A stretch of DNA of 62,912 bases, the filler included, from Collodictyon triciliatum (lineage: Eukaryota), in the NCBI GenBank assembly GCA_043381765.1. It is 8 parts of 8 records of this genome, joined end to end, with 100 filler letters (N's around TTAATTAATTAA, not from the genome) between each part and the next. Parts side by side here need not be neighbours in the genome. Positions count along the whole stretch, not along the records: positions 36,684 to 46,065 come from JBHJMP010003042.1; 7 more parts are not named here. One strand, given 5' to 3'. Every line of letters begins with the position of its first letter. Position 1 is the stretch's first letter. The translations under genes and the position numbers were made by a program. Below are positions 129 to 52,300 of this stretch, piece after piece. Under the pieces are notes generated by a model, which had not been told where the DNA came from, made no database searches, and saw nothing but the letters and a program-made list of their open reading frames with translations.

Positions 129-2400
129 TTATGGAGTAAGAATTGGTATGAATGAAGAGGTGGAGTAAGGATGCCTATTTGTTTTGTCTCCCAAGCTGAA
201 AACCGTCGTTATCAGATAGGCAGAATGCGGAGTGGAGCATGGAAGCACTGCATGCTAGGGTTTACTTGACTAGTTATATTTTTTTTTATCTAAGTGAGTA
301 AATTGGACAGTGTACTAAATAAATAAAAATACACCGATTGCCTCAGTTTGATATAATATAATGAATCCACCATCTTTCAGAAATTGAATTGAAGAATATT
401 TTTTTTAAAAAAAATATAGAAATTAGGAACATTCCAAACCTATGAAAGAGTGAATGATTTCGTTTTCGATCCTAAAGATACTCCACTGACAACGTCTAGT
501 ATGAAGTATAGTTAATATTAGCACTATCCAAGGGGAAAGAAGCGCTCAGTTCTGCATCAAATAAACCAACCAGTAAATAAATGCGTCTAATTCCATCTCA
601 TAGTATATACATGACAACTCACCGAAACAGCTCCAGAGCAGCAAGAAGAAACACAAACATTTCGTGCTTGAATCCAACCAGCGAAAATGCCGCGGGAGTG
701 ATAGTCAATGTTTTCGCAAAGCGTAGGAGAAGATTGCTGATGATGGCATACCAGTAAACCTACGATAATCTTTATTTTTGAATGGCATCTATGAAATCAT
801 GTATTGAGGAGCTCTCATATTTGATGTGATTAAGACATGATATTGTTGATGACATACCCAGTGGCTTTTAAAAATTCGATTTTCTCGAATAAATTTCTTC
901 GAGTTCAAATCAATCATTCTCCAATCGACAAGAATGTCCCAGATGAAAGCGTAGAGAGTGCTCCCGAAAAAGAGAATCAACCAAATGATGTATGGTGTAG
1001 ACCATGCGAGATGAGGAGAGACTGGGAACAGAGTATATGTAATAAATGAAACATGAATACAACGCCATGATAGAATGAATGCTAAAAAAAAAAAAAACAA
1101 TCAAGGTAGTTATTCATGCCTGAGCGATGTCATTGTTAGGTGGTTCAAAAAATACAGAAAAGGTAAGAATTAATAAACCTACCAAAGTCTCCATAGAGAC
1201 GTCCGTATATGACTGCTAAGATAGAGCAGAAATACTTCCCAGCATTGGCAATATGAGGAAATAGTAGCCCGGAGTAATAATACCCGCGAATGCATTGCAT
1301 AAAACGAAGATAGAGGGGTAGCGCTGCTAGGATGGTAAGGATTACTCCGTTTCTGTCGTATTCTATTGAGTTAAAAATTAGATAGAGAAAAGAAAAAATT
1401 GGATATTGTATGGCACCATGATAGGGCCGGGCGGTGGGCAATTTCCTTTTCACTTTTTTCTTTTGCTCCTTTATATTTTCACATATTCTGATGGCTATTG
1501 TAATATGTCCACCTCGAGACCTTTGTATGGCATAACCTCGCTACACTTTGAATCGAATAAAGGAAAAAAAAATGTCCACCTCGAGATGCACGTAGTATAA
1601 AATATTACCACTTGAATACCAAATACACATCACAATAAGGTGGTTGCAGTCGAAAAGCAAACGTGGCATGCTAGTAATGAAGTCTGCCACGAAATTTTCG
1701 GCAAAGGAAGTTCTTCCAAAAGGTGCCATAATAATCTGGACTATTGTTCTGGCGAGATATGACCTCAAATCTGAAGGCCACAGCATCGCGACTAGCATAG
1801 TCATGGTGATAAAAAATAGAAAGTCGTACGAATGGGTCAAAAACAGCTGATTGTTGGAAATCATGGCACCGGAATATGTAACGACGCAAAAGATCCAAGC
1901 AACGCTCAAAATATTGGACAACTAAAATGCATGGCATAAATTATCTTGTGAGTGTCAATGCGTTACAGAGTGATTGAGCAAAGATTAAACAAGCTGGGAA
2001 CCTGAATCTATGCATAGAGGATTTTTATGTGGCATTCTCATACCTGGATTATCTCCCCAAGGAAGTTCTCTTTGTTTGAGTGGATGGCCACGCCCAGCAG
2101 TTCCTCATATGGCACTTGGTAAATGTGAAAAATGCTAATCACAATGGACCAAAACCAGAAGAGTAGGATCGGCAACAGAAACGCGCGAAAGACCGGAATC
2201 ACAGCGAGGACAAGGCTGATATTCGGCGTTGAGTTCGTCCCGGGTAGGAAGATGAGGACAAAATAGCTGTATAGCGCAAGTACTATGTAAATGGCCGGGA
2301 AGGAGAAGCACCAAGGCGGAATCCAGTGCACTAGAAAGCGAATGTCGAATTGTTGAAGCCAACGACGGCGGCGATGTCCGTGGCTTGTGTATGAACCCAT
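129..2400 (-). CDS. EXS (ERD1/XPR1/SYG1) family membrane protein, multi-exon
   Basis: Spliced exons give EXS motifs FAENFVADFITSM, LPLYLRFMQCIR, PHIANAGKY, STLYAFIWDILVDW, ISNLLLRF, LELFRRCQWSIFRIENE. ATG at 2400; the last two exons and stop at 129 are inferred from phase-compatible GT-AG sites. Confidence 0.88.
1520..1571 (+). mobile_element. Family A retroposed insert (52 bp) in an EXS intron
   Basis: CCTTTGTATGGCATAACCTCGCTACACTTTGAATCGAATAAAGG(A)8 between perfect 15-bp direct repeats ATGTCCACCTCGAGA (1505-1519, 1572-1586). Confidence 0.88.
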
Positions 2401-8138: not shown

Positions 8139-8238
8139 NNNNNNNNNNNNNNNNNNNNNNNNNNNNNNNNNNNNNNNNNNNNTTAATTAATTAANNNNNN
8201 NNNNNNNNNNNNNNNNNNNNNNNNNNNNNNNNNNNNNN
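8139..8238. other. Artificial scaffold spacer (N44-TTAATTAATTAA-N44)
   Basis: The same 100-nt six-frame-stop linker recurs at 17626-17725, 27105-27204, 36584-36683, 46066-46165, 55539-55638 and 60912-61011. Confidence 0.97.
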
Positions 8239-17515: not shown

Positions 17516-18828
17516 AGTTGTGATCTGTTGTTTGTTTGTTTGTTTGTTTGTTTGTTTGTTTGTTTGTTTGTTTGTTTGTTTGTTTGTTTGTTTGTTTGTT
17601 TGTTTGTTTGTTTGTTTGTTTGTTTNNNNNNNNNNNNNNNNNNNNNNNNNNNNNNNNNNNNNNNNNNNNTTAATTAATTAANNNNNNNNNNNNNNNNNNN
17701 NNNNNNNNNNNNNNNNNNNNNNNNNTTTATTTGGTATTTTATTTGGTATTTTATTTGGTATTTTATTTGGTATTTTATTTGGTATTTTATTTGGTATTTT
17801 ATTTGGTATTTTATTTGGTATTTTATTTGGTATTTTATTTCTTCACGGATACATGAAGTGACCAGTTGTTTCTCTATGATTCCTTGTCTCCTTCACATTG
17901 GGAATTGCCACAAAGGCCGAAGCGCTTGACAACGCGGCTCGATCGGCCTGGCGTGTGTTTGAAAAAATAGGGGTTTGGCTTCTCCTTTGCTGTGTTGTGT
18001 TTTATCCCGAAACGACCTTTTCATATGTGAAAGTGAGGCTCGAGAACAACAATTTGTGATTACTGTTTTGAAATCTCATTATTGCCTCATTCAGGATATC
18101 TTGATTGTCGACAGATTGGCAAGAGAACAGGGTTAGGACTATCAGCTAGAAGATTCATGAGTGTTCTATGCCATATACATGATTTTATAATAAATTCCAC
18201 AAATAAAACACAAAAGAGTGATATTCCCAATATGCCATATTTGGTCTCCATTTTCCACAACGGGCGAAGGACGCGAACTCATACCTATTCGAAGCACGAG
18301 AGCCTCTTGTTTTTGGAGGGCTTTGCAGCAATTTGCAGCAACCGCGACGAGCTTCGAGTTCTGCCAGGAAAACGATGGAGCGTAAAACCCTGTCTGATGT
18401 CCCACTATGCAAGCCGAGAACAATCAAATATCTTGCGTTTCCTACTTTGACACATACCTAGGTGTGTGGGTTGTGTGGGTTGTGCTCGCATCTGCGGATT
18501 TTTATTTGGTGGGAGTACAGAATTGACTCCGAGAGGTACTCTATTTCGTGCTCTGGAACTTAGATACTATGCAATAAATGCAAAGGAAGAAAAAAAAAAG
18601 GCTGTGTGATTTTGGACAGTTTTCAAGGGATATCAGCTCCATTTCAATCTACTCATATTGGTTCGACCAAGTGAGCGAACAACATCCCGCAATAAAGATA
18701 CAGCAACCCAGCGACAATTCACTACCAAGGTCGGACGCTTTGCGCACTATTACATTTGTGTGTTTATTAAAAATATTCTCGCAGATAAATCATGAAGTCT
18801 CTCACCCAACAGAAATAACTAATAAGCA

Positions 18829-27104: not shown

Positions 27105-27204
27105 NNNNNNNNNNNNNNNNNNNNNNNNNNNNNNNNNNNNNNNNNNNNTTAATTAATTAANNNNNNNNNNNNNNNNNNNNNNNNNNNNNNNNNNNNNNNN
27201 NNNN

Positions 27205-27302: not shown

Positions 27303-27650
27303 AACATAATTGTAAAAGGAGAAAATAAATCGTAGGCATATTAAGGCCGAGTTCGTGAGAAACGATCGATGAAGCACCCCTCCAGATTTTCTCATACCTT
27401 CACGCTTTGGGCTGACATTCTCGATCTGCTCCTTCAAAAAAGCCTTCCTGTAAGGGTTTGGGACAAAACAGATGATTAGCTTCTGGGCAAAGGAACCCGC
27501 CCCAACGCAGTTGTTCTGATCCAACAAAAGTTCTCCAGCCATTATGGCCGGTCTCAGCGACAGTGACCCGGGATCCCCGCTCGACGAAGACGGAACAGAT
27601 CGCGCTGGAAAGCACAAAATAAAAATCTAGACAGTGGACATCGCAAAAGG

Positions 27651-39743: not shown

Positions 39744-39791
39744 TTTTTTTTTTTTTTTTTTTTTTTTTTATTCTTCCTTTCAATTTTGTGC
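39704..39791 (-). mobile_element. Family B insert with about 68-nt poly(A) tail
   Basis: Long T-run plus ATTCTTCCTTTCAATTTTGTGC between perfect 16-bp repeats ACCAACTGAGAGGCTT (39688-39703, 39792-39807). Confidence 0.9.
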
Positions 39792-39805
39792 ACCAACTGA
39801 GAGGC

Positions 39806-42800
39806 TTAGTGGCCGCCGAACGGATTGTCAATCGAGGGAGATAGAGGACCGAAGAGCTACATTCCATGCGGCAATATTTCACATTCGTCAGTATACAGCC
39901 CACCCAGCAGAAATAATGGTGGTTAAATGAACACTGCTTCTGAACACCAAAAACAAAAAGAAAAACCAAAAGAAAAACCAAAAGAAAAACCAAAAGAAAA
40001 ACCAAAAGAAAAAAACCAAAAAAATTAACAGGCTATCACGATGATAATGAAAATAACTCACAATGAGCCCATCCTTTCCAACCACAGCTACTTCTTCCAG
40101 ACGGATTCCAAGCTCTCCAGTAATGTAAATCCCTGGCTCAACGGAGAATGTCATTCCTTTGTGTGTCATAGTGACATATATTAGTAATGAAGACAGAATA
40201 ATGATTGCGTTGAATAAAAATGGCAAATCCCGTTCGCCACGAAGAAAAATAAATTGGCTACCTTCTTCAAGGACAGTGTTGTTATTTCCTCGCACAGCGT
40301 AGGGCTCTTCGTGTCCCTGAAGGCCGATTCCATGGCCCAGACGATGAGTAAAGAAGTCATAGTCATAGCCAAATCCAGCCGCATCAACAACGTCACGCGC
40401 AGCCTAATTATGAATATATGTAAGATGAATTGCATTTTTTGACTATGTTCTGATTAAGCAATCTGAAAAGAGAAAATGAAACCCATTTCATATTTCCAAA
40501 ACTTCCCAATATCTTTTTGTTCCGGAAAAAAAAAACAGGTTTATTCTCAAACATGATTCATAAACGATTGGTTGAATTTCTTTCTATCGATCTCTTGATT
40601 AATTCAAGGCAAAATAGACATGTTTATAAATCAATATTGAAGACCTTATCAATATCAGCGAACGTAACACCTGGTCGTCCGACTCTCATGACAGCCTCCT
40701 GCGCTTCCTTCACAACGTTCCATATATCACGACTATCATTTTGTATTTATATTCGGCTGCAGTTAAAATTGGGACGTATCCAAGAGAATCGATCCGTACA
40801 TTACACTTTTCAGGGATTATGACCACACCTATACATTATTTTTATTGTAAAACCATGAGATGAAAAAAATTATTTTTTTTTATTGTTATTCATACGCTCT
40901 TTGTGTGATTGTACCGACAGCGAACGTGCGAGTGCAATCGGACTGGTAGCCATAAAGCTCACCTCCAGTGTCAACAAGGACAAGGTCACCATCAACCTAA
41001 GTGTTTGGAATTCATACCTCAAAATCAGATCAATAGATATAGTTAAAAATTGGGACTATGATGTCTTTCTGATAGTGTTGACAACATTACAAGAGCGTGA
41101 CTCGAGCCAGAGCCGTGCGGGAAAGCAGCGTTCGGCCCTACAATTTTTTTTATTTTGGTTGAGGGATAAGAAAATAGCATTTAGTTGGAATGAATAGGGC
41201 CTGGTAAAAAACATGAAAAAGTAAACATGAGAAAAAAAAGGAAAAAAAGAAAATGTTTCCAGTCCACGAATTATGCCAAGATATCCTACCAAATAGAATC
41301 AATGTCCACGTGTTTGTCAACCCAGCCGCAGACAAAGCGCTATGCATGATTGGGCTTAATTCCGATTCGATCATTCCAAGCTTGGCATGCTTCGAAACGG
41401 CAGCAATACTGTAATAGGCAAGATTTATTTTTGTATGAAATAAAATTTTAGCATCAAGATTTTCATTTCATATATCAGCTGTATAATAATATAAGAAAAA
41501 GCGTGGGATTTATGCATATAACAGTTTCCTTTATCGGCACTAAGATGCTACCTAGCCTTAGTAGCACGCTCGGCACAATCAAGAATGGCAATCTCAGCTG
41601 ACGATTTAACCATGCGTATCTGGATATAGATAACTGTAATTTTTCTTCTCTTTTCCCTTATTTCTTTTTTTTTTTCAAAAAAAAAAAAAGAAGAGGGTTA
41701 TGTATAAAAATTCCAAAAAAAATATTGTTCTTGTCAGAGATAACTTGAAGTATTTACCTCGCGAACGATTTCGAAACCATTCAAAACGGAATAAGAATGG
41801 GACAACTTTTTAATCAGACCCAAAAAAAAATAATAAATAAAACGATAGTTGGTAGCTTTTAAAAAGTCATAAAGTTATTGTGCAAGTCGAAAACTTTCGT
41901 TTTAAGTTAAAAGCAAAATACATTTGAAAACTTTGGCTATTTTTCTTTGAAATAGTACAGTACCATCGGCGATAAAGAATCGTGTTTCAGATTCGACATA
42001 GACAACTCCCCTTGTAGAAAAGCTCTTCAGGACTTGTTCCACCTACGAATGACATAAAATCGGTCCTTGAATGAGGGCAATAAGGTCAAACTACTTCAAA
42101 GTTACATTTTTGGAACATTTCCCTGAATTGAAGAGTTTTATCCGCAACATAAGTTCAACCATTTAAACGATATATTTCTTTTTTTTAAATAATAATAAAT
42201 AAATAATAATCATACGACAGTGTACGGGCTCTCATCCTCCTCCCACGTGTAAATGACTGCATCTTTGCCCAGCTGCAGGTTATTCATTTATTGAATTATT
42301 TTGGTACAATTCGTGAATTTCAAACAAAAAAATATTGGCGATGAGGGATATACCATCGCTCGTGCTTTGCCCTCCTCGAAAGACGGAGTCACAAAAGTAA
42401 CAGGGATTTTGGTGTCTGCTGGGATAATCATCAGGAAAGGACGTTCGCTGGGATATTTCCAATTTCAAGTGATTGATAAAATCTCAGAGATTTCACAAAG
42501 AGCAAAAGCAAACTGCGACTTCAACCACTCGCCTTACCTAAGTTTCCATGTGGCGTTCACGAAATACTTTAGAGTTGCTCCTGGCTCAGAGACGAAGGCA
42601 ATGGCGTTGAAACGGTGAAGATAGCTTCTCATTCTCTACATAGGATTTTTGCAAGGTATGAATCGCCATGCGAGTGTGAATCTTAGCAAACACTTGAAAG
42701 ATACACAGGGGTCTAAAAATGCCATGAGGAATGAAACTCTGAAGATGAAAAGCTTACGTCTTGGCGTTGGACAAACTCATGCGCACTGATGGGGGGAACT

Positions 42801-43106: not shown

Positions 43107-43478
43107 GCTTTTCAATTGTATGTTGTTTACGAGTGTGTGGGAAATAATAACGAGTCTGAAATAATAAACAGCCAGGGCCTCAAGTCACACGTGGACTTTG
43201 CAGCTGATCTTACTGGACTTTGGAAGGTGCGTCTCTTCATGGCGTTTCGGCTTGGACAAAGAATCGTGATCGGCTTTCAGAGGTTTTTTCTGCCAGCGGA
43301 AATGTTCGGAGGTGCCAGAAAAATCCACACATTTACTATTTGTGGAAAATTCATCCTATTAAATTTGTAAATGTGGAAACTATTCTCTCTTTTTTTTTCA
43401 GGCTAAGGGCTGTTGTTGGTGCCTCAGTCACGTGTTTATTTCGTTTTCTTGGCGCCTTGCTTCAGCCACGTCGCGTAT

Positions 43479-43504
43479 TTTTTTTTCCTTTATTCGATTC
43501 AAAG
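43479..43504 (-). mobile_element. Family A minimal insert (26 bp)
   Basis: T8-CCTTTATTCGATTCAAAG between perfect 17-bp repeats TCAGCCACGTCGCGTAT (43462-43478, 43505-43521). Confidence 0.9.
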
Positions 43505-43740
43505 TCAGCCACGTCGCGTATGACAGGCGCAAAAAGGGAGATTTGAAGGATTATGAAGTGGACTATTTTTTCTTTTGGAGAGATCGACTTTAGCAAAGTC
43601 ATATTTATAGACGTTTCCTTCGGTTTTCATCTTGAAGCTTTCCCTTCCGATTGTGTGTCGGTTGCGAGTTGGAAGCGGCAGAAACTTTTGAGTGGAAAGC
43701 CGCGATACCTCAGGATGACAGGAGGCATTGTGTGATGTAG

Positions 43741-45875
43741 TTACTCATTAGCAGGGCGAAGGACTAGTACCGATGGGTCCTTCTGACCAAAGAATCCGTC
43801 CACAAGATTGATGAGAACATTTAGATGGGGCAAGCACTCATCATCGCGGGTTTGCTGTTTGAAATGAGTCCATTCAGTTCAAATAATTCTTTAAGACTAA
43901 TATTTATGAACGAATCGAGAAATATTACAAAGAAAATACAGATAGACTTTTGGAAACAAAACAACAGAATATTTATCTCTTCATTTTCATGTTGGCAGTT
44001 TCGTCGAACAAACCAATCGCGAACGAAAGAAGGCACATCGACGCATGAGTGACATTAACTCGAACTGCGTGTCTGGATCAAGAATATTATCGAGCATAGT
44101 TAGAAGGGCATAAAGCCATGATCCTCTGACTCGCGGTCTATAAAATTGTGGGAGTTCCATGATCCATTCGATATGCATGCTGAGTAGACGCTGCACGTTA
44201 ACCTGCAAATTGGGCAATTAAAATCTCTTGTCTTTTCTCGAAAAAGAAACCAGGAATTCAACCACGGTAAATTTCTTTTGTCATTGATTACATGTTTCAA
44301 TTAAAAGTATGTCATATATCTACGCGAAAATCACATGTTAATCTTAGCAAGTAATGATTCAACATAATAGAGACCTGATCGAGCTGGCTTAATATGGATA
44401 TCACTGGCATGTTTTCTTCGGCGGGGATAATTTCAGGCCAGGATAGCACTGGGGACTCGGGTTCCTTCACCCCGAAGCAAAACACATGCCACGCTGATGA
44501 GTTTCTTGTCGATGGTATTTTGATCCCACTCCCATTTCTTTGGTTTGTGCCGTTCATCATTTTTTCCATATTCTATCAATATTTTACTTCTTATAGAAAC
44601 CAAACGACCACGTTTATAATAATGTGTAAATTGATGAATAGCAAATAAAACAAAACAAAACAAAACAAAACAAAACAAAACAAAACAAAACAAAACAAGA
44701 TAAAACAAGATAAAACAAGATAAAACAAGATAAAACAAGATAAAATAAGATAAGATAAAATAAGATAAGATAAAATAGGATAAGATAAAATAAGATAAGA
44801 TAAAATAAGATAAAATAAAATAAGATAAAATAAAATAAGATAAAATAAGATAAGATAAAATAAGATAAGATAAAATAAGATAAGATAAAATAAGATAAGA
44901 TAAAATAAGATAAGATAAAATAAGATAAGATAAAATAAGATAAAATAAGATAAAATAAGATAAGATAAAATAAGATAAAATAAGATAAGATAAGATAAAA
45001 TAAGATAAAATAAGATAAAATAAGATAAAATAAGATAAAATAAGATAAAATAAGATAAAATAAGATAAAATAAAATAAGATAAAATAAGATAAGATAAAA
45101 TAAGATAAAATAAGATAAAATAAGATAAATAAGATAAAATAAGATAAAATAAGATAAAATAAAATAAGATAAAATAAAATAAGATAAAATAAAATAAGAT
45201 AAAATAAAATAAGATAAAATAAAATAATACAAAACAAAATAGAACAAGATAGATACAACAGCAGCAAAGGAAGTCTAATGAAAAGGGAATTTGAAATGGC
45301 ATTTTCTTTGCATTCATGTTTTTTCCTCATAAAATAAAAAAAAAAGGACATATATGCATAAATAACCGTACAAATCGAACGTTCCGGAACTCATGCAAAA
45401 GCAGGCCTCGCCAGTCCGCCGTGGGAAGCCAGGACGGATCCAATGCGTCTGCACCAGGCTTCTTGAGACCCACGCCTTTCAAGACCGAGGGAATATAGTT
45501 TGTCTGCTGCTGTGTGAAGTTCTTTGGGTCCAGTCCAGAGGACATGTTGAAGGGGATGGACTTTGCCTCGGCCCGCACTCTCCGCAGATAGTCCAGCCCG
45601 TCAGACGGCGGCTCGTTCGGGTCTCCACTTGGAGCGCCGTCCACAGCAAACGCTCGCGGCAGCAAATGCGGATCGTTTTCTTCCTCGTCATCGTCATAGA
45701 AGTCGTCGTCGTAGTCATAGTCGTCGTCGTCTTCTTCGTGCTCTTCTTCGTCGTTGTAGTTGTCGTTCTCTTCATAGTCTCTATCAAACGTCTGAGTCTC
45801 GTGGGCGGAATCCTCGTCGTTGCTGTCTTTATCGCCCCTGCGATTCTTTGCGTTCGGCTGCGTCCAACGTGACAT
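43741..45875 (-). CDS. GEMIN2: Gemin2 / SIP1 (SMN complex), multi-exon
   Basis: PPSDGLDYLRRVRAEAKSIP, WLPTADW...F, PVISILSQLDQ, GSWLYALLTMLD...LMRRC, LNVLINLVDGFFGQKD. Confidence 0.9.
44645..45240. repeat. Compound pentamer array (CAAAA/TAAGA/TAAAA)n in Gemin2 intron 1
   Basis: About 600 bp of interleaved 5-bp units. Confidence 0.93.
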
Positions 45876-46365
45876 TCCTCCGGGCAACGAGCGTTTTCTT
45901 GTGGTGATCTTCTGTCATTTTTGTGGGCGTTCAAACCAGCTGATCAAATTGGCTCAACTTCAAAGAAGCTTTGGCGCTGGCTTTCCACAAAAAAGCCATA
46001 AAAAAAGCCATAAAAAAAGCCATAAAAAAAGCCATAAAAAAAAGCCATAAAAAAAGCCATAAAAANNNNNNNNNNNNNNNNNNNNNNNNNNNNNNNNNNN
46101 NNNNNNNNNTTAATTAATTAANNNNNNNNNNNNNNNNNNNNNNNNNNNNNNNNNNNNNNNNNNNNAAGAGAGAGAAAAAGAGAGAGAAAAAGAGAGAGAA
46201 AAAGAGAGAGAAAAAGAGAGAGAAAAAGAGAGAGAAAAAGAGAGAGAAAAAGAGAGAAAAGAGAGAAAATGAAAGAGAAAATGAAAGAGAAAATGAAAGA
46301 GAAACCATGATTTTATAATGAAAGGAAAAAGGATGATAAAGTACAAATTGAAATATACAAACCAC

Positions 46366-49300
46366 TAATCAGCCATTTTCTTTGTGGATCAAGTAGCAGC
46401 TTATGAGGCAAGCCAAATGGAACGCCATTCTTCAATGTCCATGAGCTGGAATTCGTTCGTAAATCCCATCCGTGAATATTCGATTTTGCTGTGGAAAAGA
46501 CGAGCATGGACTGAGGGTCTTCGTTAAAATGCTCGACGGCGATAATCGAACCCTCATGACGGTAGTTTGAAGTTGCCTATGATTGGTGATAAAGCATGAG
46601 AGTTATCAAGGAGTTCAAGCGGCGGTTTGGATCGAATCAATAGAGAAAGGGGAATGCGGTTTAAGGAACACAAAAATGTAAACATGATTTTTATTTCATT
46701 CAGTTAAAAAAAAAAATAGAACTGGAATAACATTGATAATATTAATGTCTCCACTTCTGGACACTATGATTTCTTTGAAATTGAGTGTTACTGGTGATAT
46801 TTCCCGAATAGTTGTTGTACTAGTATATCGATGTGCGCGGTCATTGGTGGCATAATCGAGTCTGAATACATGCACAGAACCGTTTCTGGAGTGTGGTATA
46901 ATGCATCAAAGTGTTATTTAACCCTTGGTATTCCATGTTTAATTGCCATAAGGTTAAGGGAAATGCGAAAGTAACAAAACAAAAACAAAAAAAAGCCACA
47001 ATTGGTCAGATAATTAATACAAAGATTTAGAAGCTTACTCTGACGCACAAGCAATGCTGTGGGTCCCTTCACATATAGTAATTGAGTTGATGCGGCCTCC
47101 TGAAAGCATATTAGGAAATTAACTAAAGAACTGCCTATTTATGTATTTACTCCTGCTGTAGAGAATGTGGTAAACTGTATAAAAAAATTGACTATCAACT
47201 CAAAGTAAAAGAAAAAGAAAGAGAAAGAGAAAGAGAAAAAGAAAGAGAAAGAGAAAAAGAAAGAGAAAGAGAAAAAGAAAGAGAAAAAGAAAGAGAAAGA
47301 GAAAAAGAAAAAGAAAAGGATGGGAGGAAGAGGGAACCTTGTGATTCATACGTCAGAACAGATCGATTGGTCGTATTTTTATCAATACGCTGTCATGGAG
47401 TTGATTTCGAGTTACTTGACAGGATGACATTCGAACTTAAGACGCATGCAGTATCTGCATATTATGAAAAGGAGGCTAACAAACCTGACAATCCCATATT
47501 TTAACTTTTCCATCATCAGAGCACGTAGCAAAGAAAGCGTTATCCTCTGCCACACGTATCTGACATAATTTTAGATCAATATTGGGTTCTTTTTTCTCTT
47601 TCTTTTTTCTTTTGAAGACAAAAGAAGTCTTCGTGTGATTTTTTTCCCTTTATTCGATTCAAAGGAAGTCTTCTTCATGTGACATTAAAGTAAAGCTTAA
47701 TTTTTTTCGGAGTCATCACAACGGAGGGGAAGAGTGTTAAATTAGCATCAGTATAGAAAGGCGTGAATACAAATAGGGAACTAAAGATGAGGTACGTAAT
47801 CGATCTCACCTGATTTATGGCGCCTCTATGGTCGACAAGATGACCCACAAGAATGCCTCTCGGTCTCCACGAGGCACTTCGGTTGAACGTCCCACTTTGG
47901 AAGGGAAGATGAATTTTGTCTCAAAACAATATAATTCCAATCCAAGTACGCGAAATGAAAATAAAAATGAAAATAAAAATTGAGAAATTGAGAAAGAAGC
48001 GTGGTCAGAAACACTCATCTAGCATTAATTCAATCCATATCTTAGGTATTACAAACCCGACTGGGATAGATGGTGCCATTCGTATTTGTTTCATGTCAGG
48101 GAGCGGTGGGAGTGATGTCTGGGCGAGTTTTGCTTGAAGAGCTTGACTTGCCTCCTGATCCAATGTATTTGAAATTTGGTTGTTGTTGGTATTGTTTTAT
48201 TTTGTTTTGGTGAGTTAGAGTCTCATGATCAATTCTAAACTCTTTTGCTTCATATCAGATAGATAATAGTATATGCTGATTTCCTGTCGTAATTACTTGA
48301 TTCAAAGACACAAAGTTCCTGAGAGGGCGGTTGAAAACAGGAAAAGATTGGTCAAATCCTATCTCTGTTGTGTTTCTATGAATAATAGGAATTTATTCTA
48401 CATGTTTTCCCACGTAAGTGCTTTTAAAGAAATATTTGACCCTTGTTCTTAATTTTCTCTTTACCTGCTCATCACATTTGGAGTCCTGAATAGATCCATT
48501 CATAAAATTTTCAAGTAGCATAGGAGAGGAAGAAGAAGAAGAAGAAGAAGAAGAAGAAGAAGAAGAAGAAGAAGAAGAAGAAGAAGAAGAAGAAGAAGAA
48601 GAAGAAGAAGAAGAAGAAGAAGAAGAAGAATAGAGAATAAATTAGGTCTTATCTTCAGAATGTAACATTTCTAATTCCCGAACTGACAAAATCTATATAT
48701 AAAAATACCCGCTCTGGGAGCTAAAATGGGGTGGTGTATGGAATTGTATTAGTTGGGAAAAAAAAAGAAAGGGAATTGATTGGAGACGAAATTGATGTAT
48801 TATACCAACTTTGGTTGATCATTTGGGTGGTAGGAACTAGAATATCCATTTTACATATAAATTTGGCTGCATTGCAATAAATAACTTACAAAGACCCGAT
48901 TGATTGGGCGATGGATTTTCTTGTCAAACTTGTTCCGGATTTATTCTATGATTGAAATTTAAAAGCGGTTCATTTTATCAACCCCCGTATATCATCGATA
49001 TGGAAAAATATAAATTATGTAAAGGTGATTTATTACGCTTGTATTGTCCGAGAAAGTTTCATAGACTGCAGAACCAACTTGAACAGTGTAATGTTTGACA
49101 TGCTGAGAAAGACTTCGAAAATGGTTCAGTTCTTGACTTAACTCGCTTTCACCGCCCGGCCCCGAAAACTGTTCCCTTTGTCGATTGATACTACAGTTTT
49201 GAAAAAAAATTAGTCGTGTATATAAATTTACATATTTATATAGTCAAAGAATATTGATGATATTTTCTAAATGAAGGTATTTATTTCGCTCGTTTATTAC

Positions 49301-52300
49301 GATCTTATTGCATGCGAAGTGGATTCTATGTAAGTTTGTATGGAGTGCAAGGCCACTTCATCAGCCTCCGACATATAGTCCGAATGAATCGTAAGCTGCT
49401 GGTTGTATATGTTCATCGGATATATCTATATTATTATTGAATGAATAATTCATTATACATCACAAATGCATGTGTAGTTTTTTTTTGAATTTTTTTTATT
49501 AATATCAAAAATCCTATATTCAAGTGTCTGCTTAAAATGGGCTATCTAGACCAGATCGATAGTTTTAAATGAAATTCATGAAAATATGGCTCATTAAATG
49601 TATCCACAAACATTCTTAAGCCGCCTTTCTTGAATATTTGTCTCTACGGCATTGGTGATTGTGACAAAATCACTGTTTGATCGAGCAAGCAGAGATATTT
49701 ATTAATAATTGTTCGAAAATTTCTATCAAAAGTGAGATAGGATTATGCAACTCTGAAATTATTTTAACAATACGGTTGCTTTTCAACAGGCTCTTGGAAC
49801 TTGTTTGGTCTCTCAGTTTTGTTCTCAATGGATAGATTCAACGCGTTTAAGAATGCTGTTCTTGATACCTTATTACGAAATAGTATTTTCCTTTCAGACC
49901 ATCAGTTTCAATTCTCGAAATTTACAGCTATTATAAATGGTAGATGATTCATTTTGAAAATGAATTCAATTATTCACCGGCGTTTTCAAGGCATTAAGCA
50001 GAGAAAGCTCAGTGACTTCTGATATATCATGTATCAGGTAGGGCTTTATACACGGGAGCAAATACGCGTGAATATCTATCAGCGGAAGTTTACTAGCGAC
50101 AGATGCAACAAACCCAACAGCAGCTAGTCAAGTGATCGATTAATTTAAGTGAAGAGAAAAAATAGGCTTTGAAGAATTAATTTTCAATGTAAATAAATGA
50201 ATAAACAAATGTCGGTATCGGTCTCGCAAGTTTAGCAACATAAAATAACCCTACCGTGTCGAATCCACAAATTTGGATGAACAAGGAGTAATACAACTTT
50301 CTTGAGTATTTCTACAAGAGTTGAAGTTCGAAAAAGCCCTAAATCTGAAAGGGATGCAAGGCAGCTCAAGCTTTTCTCCACCGCAAACTCTTCGTCATCT
50401 GCAGTATTTCATTTTATTTTTATAAAAAAACATCGAAATATATCGATTATATATCCAGAATATATGTACATGCAAAATGGATATGCATATATGGCTTTTA
50501 TATAAAGAAACAATGAAAATCATGATAGCATAATCTCTTACCTCCCAAAGCCTGTATTATGCAAGGTAAGATATAAGACTCTAGACTACTTCGACCCACA
50601 AAAGTACTCAGTCCAACGATATTTTGGAAAAATGCGCAACGTAACTGGATGAGTGATAATGAAGTGTGTCAGTCTACAGGAATAAAATGTAAAAATTATA
50701 CGCATAGGATACATTTTGGCTTTTGGATATCTCAAGGGTAATATCAATCAGATTTATTGGACATGTCTAGAGAGAATTAAGAATGGTAAATAACCTCCCA
50801 ATCTCTTTCATTTAAACTTGTAATTAGGCTTGGCAGTAGATATTCATCCGTTCGCTTTCGTCCAAAGAATATACATAATCGAGTGATGTCCTAGTGAATT
50901 ACAAAATGTTTAAAGATAGACTTTGGTCAAAAAATAATAAAAAAAAATGATGATTTGTTTTTGTTTGAAGGAATATGAAATTTCGTGTCGAATTCAATTG
51001 TTCTCATATCAAAATTCATTTATCCTTGTGGTAGATAATACATAATTATCGAATAAAGAATTCTGTACTTCTAGAATTGCTCGGCGAACAATAGGACTTC
51101 TATCGATCAAAACTTCTTCAATTACGATGTGCCGAAATATATCCTTTAAGTTTCTCAGGGCTATATCATAGCTCTCCTGAAGAGAAGAAGAAAAAAATGA
51201 TTCATTTGAGAATCAAATTGTACTTGCCAGTTTCAGACAAAAGGATATTGTTGATTGAGTCATAATTGAAAATTACCTGAACTTGAGAGCCAGCCTGTTT
51301 TTCGGATGCAACTGTGGCCATTTTTCGGATGGACTATGTTCATATGTTGCAAAGAAAAGATATGTTAGGTTAAATCTGGCCGACATACTTTGAATACTTG
51401 ATATAGTCTTCATATAGGAGGAATTGTTGTGCGAGGGTGGAGGGAAAACGACAGTCTGTGTGTTTTCTTTGTTTTTGTTTGTGGTTGTGGTTTTTTTCCC
51501 TTTATTCGATTCAAATTTTTGTTTGTGTTGTTGTTTGTGTTTTTGGATATATGCTTCAAACCTGAGCTATTTCAAGAAAGTTGCGAGCAATTTCACCAAG
51601 GCGGGCTATATTTTGAGCAAAAGCAGCTCTGACAATTTCGTCTGCGTCTATCGGAATGAGTGAAAGCGATGATATGATATATTCTTGGAAAACATTTGCA
51701 TCACTTAAAGGGAACGACTGTACCATGGCTAGCTGAATATAATTATGACATATTTTGAGAATCAAAACATTCATGACGCCCTTCAATTATTGTATACATT
51801 TTTATATAAAATCTTGATTTTTATAGAAATCACTGTATTAATAAGTGCAGACTCTTACCAAATCCACCAGTATATTGATGGCCTTTGCTTTGACCAGCGA
51901 GTTTGGGTCCAGTAACATGGATGCAACATAAGGAACGAGGCGCTATCGAAACCATTTATGAGTATTTATATATGTAAAATAAGTGTTTATAAATCACCAA
52001 AACCGTTTGTACAACATAACCGATAACATTTTTCATAATTCAAAGAGAAATGGACAGATATTGATATGATTTGGATACATTAAAAAGGACGTTCATTTTC
52101 AATTATGGGGAGTATATAAAGTCTTTACTTGGGTTAAACTTTTTTACCTGGAGTAAGTGTTCTCCTTCTACATATCTTGCAAAGTTCCATATGACTGTGA
52201 GCGCCGCTCTTTTTGAACTGGGAAATCGGACGTTTCGAATTGAACAGCAAACAATATTAAGGAAAAGAATGATGCTCTGGCCCCTCCTATGATCAAATGT

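Follow-up and report, generated by a model that had tools for sequence, protein, structure and literature searches.

In heavily 5′-truncated LINE families such as CR1 and L1, most copies are short 3′ fragments that cannot move again. To our knowledge the truncation lengths in such families are broadly distributed and do not peak at one base 19 nt short of the end. For Alu, 5′ truncation points are known to cluster at hairpins and just 3′ of the SRP9/14 sites (Wildschutte et al. 2015, PMC4666360). In the part of that report used here, its authors attribute the clustering to pausing of the L1 ORF2 protein (ORF2p), and microhomology accounts for only a minority of truncations among Alu and L1 insertions. 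Counted from the 5′ end of the 300-nt Alu element, these clusters fall at 45 and 170 nt, and they take in ~16% of copies (PMC4666360).

Two further systems are close to the one described here. According to the portion of the structural study by Thawani et al. (2023, PMC10830416) on which we draw, a C-terminal segment of human ORF2p holds a stem-loop, with ~15 nt of single-stranded template leading to the active site, and unpairing of the held stem results in products of heterogeneous length. Some L1-clade LINEs have a conserved, structured 3′ end beside the A-tail and are described as ‘stringent’ in their recognition of it, in the part consulted of Ohshima (2012, PMC3472496). A literature search, which was not exhaustive, returned no description of LINE stubs that pile up ~19 nt from the tail.

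The window analysed here is a 62,912-nt stretch of DNA from Collodictyon triciliatum (GCA_043381765.1). It is eukaryotic DNA of 38.5% G+C, with intron-split genes and many microsatellites. An earlier note had placed short independent inserts at 43479, 47639, 62444, 62500, 51491 and 34516. All six were present at these places, and their exact limits agreed with the starts given for them: CTTTGAA on the element strand for the first four, TTTGAA for 51491 and TGAA for 34516. The inserts, which we call stubs, are 23–27 nt long, and consist of 16–19 nt of unique sequence followed by 6–8 A. As they lie between target-site duplications (TSDs) of 12–17 nt, the description of each insert as barely longer than its own TSD was also correct.

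Four of the stubs, all on the minus strand, begin at the C of CTTTGAA (below, the boundary C). The insert at 43479-43504 (span 43462-43521) is 26 nt long, begins on the element strand with CTTTGAATCG, ends with eight A and has a perfect TSD (17/17), the two copies of which lie at 43462-43478 and 43505-43521. Those at 47638-47664 (span 47624-47681) and 62443-62466 (24 nt, span 62426-62483) also begin with CTTTGAATCG. The former looks older because its TSD, of 14–17 nt, has a 3-nt indel; the TSD of the latter is 17 nt with one mismatch (16/17). The fourth stub, at 62500-62525 (26 nt, span 62483-62542), begins with CTTTGAAATA, has three differences from the 20-mer core of the family and is flanked by a perfect TSD (17/17). 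Two stubs start just inside the boundary. The element part at 51491-51515 (minus strand, span 51472-51527) begins 1 nt inside it with TTTGAATCG (TTTG), and its TSD matches exactly over 12 bases, in a CAA-rich target that is prone to slippage. The insert at 34516-34538 (plus strand, 23 nt, span 34499-34555) begins 3 nt inside the boundary with TGAATCG, and its TSD is perfect (17/17).

Two of these stubs are close neighbours. At 62426-62542 (minus strand) they differ internally, have the same orientation and occupy target sites that adjoin one another or share up to 3 nt, which marks either a local endonuclease hot spot or one complex event.

The stubs belong to a larger family, family 1. Its 20-mer core occurred 11 times in the window at up to 3 mismatches, compared to 0.00 expected from 100 shuffles, and a shorter probe detected a twelfth copy, at 33217-33245 (minus strand, span 33206-33256, TSD 10/11). 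This 29-nt insert is ~8 nt longer than the stubs and is the shortest of four longer copies with usable TSDs, which span 29–123 nt. The copy at 1520-1571 (plus strand, 52 nt, span 1505-1586) has a perfect 15-nt TSD and sits in an intron of an EXS-family gene. The copy at 32641-32752 (plus strand, 112 nt, span 32628-32765) has a 13-nt TSD and begins a little before the TAG stop codon of the parent open reading frame (ORF). The copy at 34074-34196 (minus strand, 123 nt, span 34059-34211) has a diverged 15-nt TSD with three mismatches.

Two remaining copies, both on the minus strand, are less clear. An old copy at 28258-28305 extends ~20–27 nt beyond the core and lacks a clean TSD. At 31764-31874 the TSD is weak (14 nt, one mismatch), and likeness to family 1 is confined to the stretch between roughly the stub boundary and the tail, the 55 nt upstream being unrelated and vaguely like those of a second family described below. 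This copy could be a chimera, a stub inserted beside an older tail, or a member of another family that shares the tail module.

When aligned from the tail, all 12 copies shared a common 3′ end and had 5′ starts that ranged from 16 to ~125 nt, which is the signature of 5′-truncated retroposition. The largest copy in the window is at most ~125 nt. Nine columns of the 12-copy alignment were invariant, showing that the tail is conserved. In 10 family-1 copies, and in 2 copies of the second family, the A-tail was followed directly by the TSD (11–17 nt). The analysis supports the view that the inserts are independent and retroposed. The copies are unevenly spread: six retroposed tails, five of family 1 and one of the second family, lie within 2.8 kb at 31764-34555, compared to one per several kb elsewhere in the window.

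What was the parent of these copies? An exact-pattern search with the 20-mer core gave 10 matching loci in metagenome contigs, of which one (L002) was a true family member. By contrast, none of 9 matching loci in prokaryote genome contigs and none of 3 in viral contigs was a true family copy. The unique part of the copy at 1520-1571 (its last 44 unique bases) is identical in L002. Upstream, L002 has an open frame whose stop lies ~95 nt before the tail and of which the last 72 residues are visible. An exhaustive, profile-free protein search with this fragment gave two matches: a near-identical fragment of 45 aa, and the C-terminus of a 253-aa protein (47% identity, E 1.5e-7, last 70 residues). 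The 253-aa protein carries zf-RVT, a domain of LINE reverse transcriptases (PF13966; 36.4 bits against a curated cut-off of 27.5). The presence of zf-RVT in this homologue indicates that the parent of family 1 was very probably a LINE, with an ORF2 that has a zinc-binding C-terminal region. Word-indexed protein searches found no longer relatives of either the L002 fragment or the 253-aa homologue. A reverse-transcriptase domain was absent from every ORF in the window, and the reverse-transcriptase and endonuclease domains of the parent were not seen directly.

The family also has the hallmarks of target-primed reverse transcription (TPRT): a 3′ A-tail, TSDs of 12–17 nt and variable 5′ ends. 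Copying by TPRT into staggered nicks explains TSDs of this length, which, together with the loose target sites, are compatible with an APE endonuclease without being diagnostic of one. Therefore, given a 12-copy family and an ORF in L002 whose homologue carries zf-RVT, the six inserts are very probably extreme 5′-truncated, dead-on-arrival LINE 3′ tails made by TPRT. A different origin, as a DNA transposon, was rejected: the terminal inverted match is only 4–5 nt, the TSD is 17 nt and the length of the A-run varies. Family 1 resembles the stringent LINEs in being poly(A)-tailed, with the last few dozen bases conserved and perhaps recognised by its own reverse transcriptase (within the part of PMC3472496 consulted). 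Unlike those LINEs, which often share their tail with a SINE, it had no partner SINE sharing the tail in the window.

The 5′ starts are not spread evenly over the tail. In the 10 copies used for statistics they lay 16, 18, 19, 19, 19, 19, 27, 44, 105 and 125 unique nt before the tail, the last four being hand estimates in consensus numbering that precede the exact insert limits (insert length minus A-tail gives about 22–24, 44, 105 and 116 for these copies). The copies at 28261 and 31784 were left out, as their TSDs are not clean. Thus, of the 10 TSD-bounded copies, 4 share a start at the boundary C and 6 begin within 4 nt of one another; among the six stubs, four start at the C of CTTTGAA, one at +1 nt and one at +3 nt. 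The test is driven by the four starts tied at 19 and is unaffected by the re-measured longer copies. In simulations, a fitted geometric model produced at least four identical starts with a probability of 0.0007. The value was 0.0025 when the geometric model was given a floor at 16, and 0.008 when six short copies were distributed uniformly over 16–27. The claim of a pile-up 18–19 nt from the tail instead of a smear therefore holds as a non-random common boundary (p 0.0007–0.008, rising to 0.077 under the steepest model considered below).

Such a cluster could arise if only copies that contain the motif were detected, as the earlier note recognised. This objection was weakened by a motif-free scan of the window, which looked for an A-run of at least 5 followed by a repeat of sequence found up to 130 nt upstream. 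It gave 10 matches (nine from families 1 and 2, one of low complexity), compared to 2 in a mirror-image control, and recovered 5 of 7 known stubs. It found no insert in the window with <16 nt of unique sequence, and probes for the last 11–12 nt of the tail found no shorter TSD-bounded copies. As no shorter inserts appeared in the motif-free scan, the pile-up is not purely an artefact of detection; inserts of that kind, if as common as stubs, should have appeared several times, which points to a real lower bound as well as a spike. The pile-up, with a smear of longer copies above it, is real within this one 63-kb window, a small sample of 10 TSD-bounded copies that include just six stubs.

The stubs and the Alu and L1 insertions are alike in their use of TPRT, in their TSDs and A-tails, and in having 5′ ends clustered at fixed positions (as far as the part of PMC4666360 used here describes them). 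They differ from Alu in where the cluster lies, which is 19 nt from the 3′ tail and defines a unit of ~25 nt, and in its share of copies (6 of 12 in the window). The stubs are an unusual and extreme variant of the known non-random 5′ truncation of LINE-mobilised copies; the data do not establish them as a mobile unit of a new kind.

We looked for an RNA structure at the boundary. In the youngest consensus (the 1520 copy plus L002), a hairpin with a 6-bp stem and an 8-nt loop is predicted immediately upstream of the spacer, and its last paired base, the 3′ foot, is exactly the boundary C. The three start positions of the stubs lie at this predicted foot or 1–3 nt 3′ of it, and none lies inside the stem. 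The hairpin just 5′ of the boundary that the earlier note envisaged is therefore present as a prediction, but it is weak: its energy of −4.0 kcal/mol is equalled by 14.6% of shuffles, and in the two diverged long copies it is not the minimum-energy fold. Across four copies the pairing is kept in 22 of 24 cells, with one compensatory pair, but 240 of 500 column shuffles match this, and the comparison is hence uninformative. The same is true of an alternative outer stem, in which the tail would pair with another occurrence of the same pentamer that lies 30 nt further upstream (40 of 44 cells pair, no better than shuffles). The copy at 1520-1571 begins exactly at the 5′ foot of this predicted outer stem, which, to judge from that one copy, may be a second preferred truncation point. 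A hairpin within the stub itself was rejected, since it folds at −0.3 kcal/mol and 97 of 200 shuffles do equally well.

A second LINE tail family in the window, family 2, has a different tail sequence. One of its copies, at 39704-39791 (minus strand, span 39688-39807), is itself a stub: its unique sequence is 22 nt long, the A-tail that follows measures ~65 nt, and the flanking TSD of 16 nt is perfect. Its boundary thus lies 22 nt from the tail, compared to 19 nt in family 1. A similar distance in a family of different sequence, albeit in one stub, favours geometry over an accident of sequence. No hairpin was found adjoining the family-2 boundary (z-scores 0.12–0.41). The long A-tail, which is interrupted by a single C, and the perfect TSD together suggest a very recent insertion. 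This stub adjoins exons of an M24 peptidase gene.

The other two family-2 copies, also on the minus strand, are a 63-nt copy at 34242-34304 (span 34228-34318) with a perfect 14-nt TSD, and the tail of a diverged subfamily near 27777 (27772-27845). The A-run of the latter ends ~53 nt upstream of a tRNA-Glu(CTC) gene in the same orientation (27649-27722), the only tRNA gene in the window. LINEs that target tRNA genes exist in social amoebae. The position of this tail recalls them, although as a single case it may be a coincidence.

What gives rise to the common boundary? The reading that we tentatively favour, at a little below an even chance, is that cDNA synthesis has an early checkpoint, marked by the shared start, at which the enzyme must leave the 3′ end that it holds. 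The LINE ORF2 protein would grasp the 3′ end of its own RNA and begin to copy at the junction of tail and unique sequence, proceeding through the single-stranded spacer of 18–19 nt. The anchored RNA upstream, which in family 1 may be the small hairpin with its 3′ foot at the boundary C, would then have to be released or unwound. If this failed in a large share of events, a short cDNA would be left, which host repair would attach to the upstream DNA end. As a consequence of the anchoring, the end point of the stubs would, we infer, be a stop of the polymerase rather than an end of the RNA.

Such a checkpoint is plausible in light of the clustered truncation of Alu and the anchoring of RNA by human ORF2p. 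The spacer of 18–19 nt between the predicted hairpin foot and the tail is similar in size to the single-stranded template described for human ORF2p, at least in the part of PMC10830416 cited above. Whereas human L1 has the poly(A) tract as its spacer and an Alu stem as its anchor (PMC10830416), the spacer in the stub family would be unique 3′ UTR and the hairpin is a weak prediction.

The strongest rival places the end in the template instead. Here the LINE RNA would be trimmed or cut from its 5′ side down to the footprint of a protein bound at the 3′ end, which could be the ORF2 protein or a poly(A)-binding protein, and the remaining 19–22 nt plus tail would then be copied in full. Two families of different sequence have their boundary about equally far from the tail (19 and 22 nt), no convincing RNA structure accounts for it, the junctions are clean and without microhomology, and no insert with <16 nt of unique sequence was found, all of which speak for a protected template. 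However, family 2 contributes only one stub to this comparison. Untemplated bases at 5′ junctions often mark copying to the end of an RNA, and the stubs have no extra untemplated bases there. We regard a protected template as unlikely, albeit the most serious competitor to a checkpoint.

Less likely again, and in our view improbable, is that the tie of four starts is a coincidence. Truncation might be steep because early processivity is poor, and joining might require a minimum length of cDNA. There are only six stubs, from one window, and under the steepest such model (floor at 16, mean excess of 4.6 nt) a set of 7 short copies contained four or more identical starts with a probability of 0.077. 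But the mode of that model is at the floor and not at 19 nt, and the probability that it places four starts at exactly 19 was 0.003. The other smooth models gave 0.0007–0.008, and a floor would itself still require a mechanism.

The earlier note had also raised the possibility of a discrete, very small polyadenylated RNA as template. An RNA of this type, with its own transcription start or released by a ribozyme or endonuclease, and mobilised in trans as a mini-SINE, would account for the sharp common 5′ end of the stubs, and there is an AATAAA close to the tail. Several observations make it very improbable. The stubs contain only 16–19 nt of LINE 3′ UTR, with no SINE head or internal Pol III promoter; 19 nt is too small for a promoter, and DNA copies of 25 nt therefore cannot be sources. 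Stubs carry both GG and GGG variants before the A-run, as do the long copies, which indicates more than one LINE source and not one small master. In addition, 2 of the 6 stubs miss the boundary, their starts being displaced inwards by 1 and 3 nt. No Rfam family, including self-cleaving ribozymes of the HDV-like and hammerhead types, matched the 3′ region of the parent. The suggestion of an unusually small mobile unit is thus unsupported by these data. Ribozyme processing was also rejected as a source of the boundary by a permissive Rfam scan of L002, in which the best hits (E 2.6 and 6) were to unrelated lncRNA models.

In microhomology-mediated joining, a short match lets the nascent cDNA pair with the upstream end of the target, which sets the truncation point. 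L1 and Alu are known to be truncated in this way (in the part of PMC4666360 used here), but it is scarcely credible for the stubs. Their six targets differ, and on inspection the end of the TSD overlapped the element sequence upstream of the junction by 1, 0, 1, 0, 0 and 0 nt, which is about chance. The microhomology raised in the earlier note is thus absent, and the end point of the stubs is independent of target sequence.

Several other features of the window were recorded. Runs of N occur at 8139-8238, 17626-17725, 27105-27204, 36584-36683, 46066-46165, 55539-55638 and 60912-61011. They are paired, with exactly 44 N each and 12 bases between, and the pairs recur approximately every 9,480 bases, several of them inside microsatellites. 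This regular spacing looks like an artefact of masking or assembly and unlike ordinary gaps. Tandem arrays at 44643-45241, 56050-56728 and 60815-60911 comprise a 600-nt pentanucleotide array and long hexanucleotide arrays inside ORFs, where the latter encode dipeptide repeats. A frame of 1,535 codons at 56360-60967 encodes TMEM132-type Ig domains.

A bolder reading is that stubs of 19–22 nt are an in-genome footprint of the LINE initiation complex, such that the last 19 nt and a short A-tail are what the reverse transcriptase holds of its RNA and by themselves suffice for recognition, copying and integration. We consider this possible but doubtful. If true, the stubs would be the smallest retroposed unit described, and ordinary genome sequence would become a record of how TPRT passes from initiation to elongation. 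If the spike proves to be genome-wide, it would be a single-base mark, made in vivo, of where a LINE reverse transcriptase or its template preferentially ends, 19 nt after the start. The passage from initiation to elongation and the joining of the 5′ end are open questions, which would become testable with a family that records this step in half of its insertions. Retroposed units of ~25 nt are invisible to standard repeat annotation, and small insertions, A-runs and duplicated 15–17-mers in introns and intergenic DNA may in part stem from such uncounted units.
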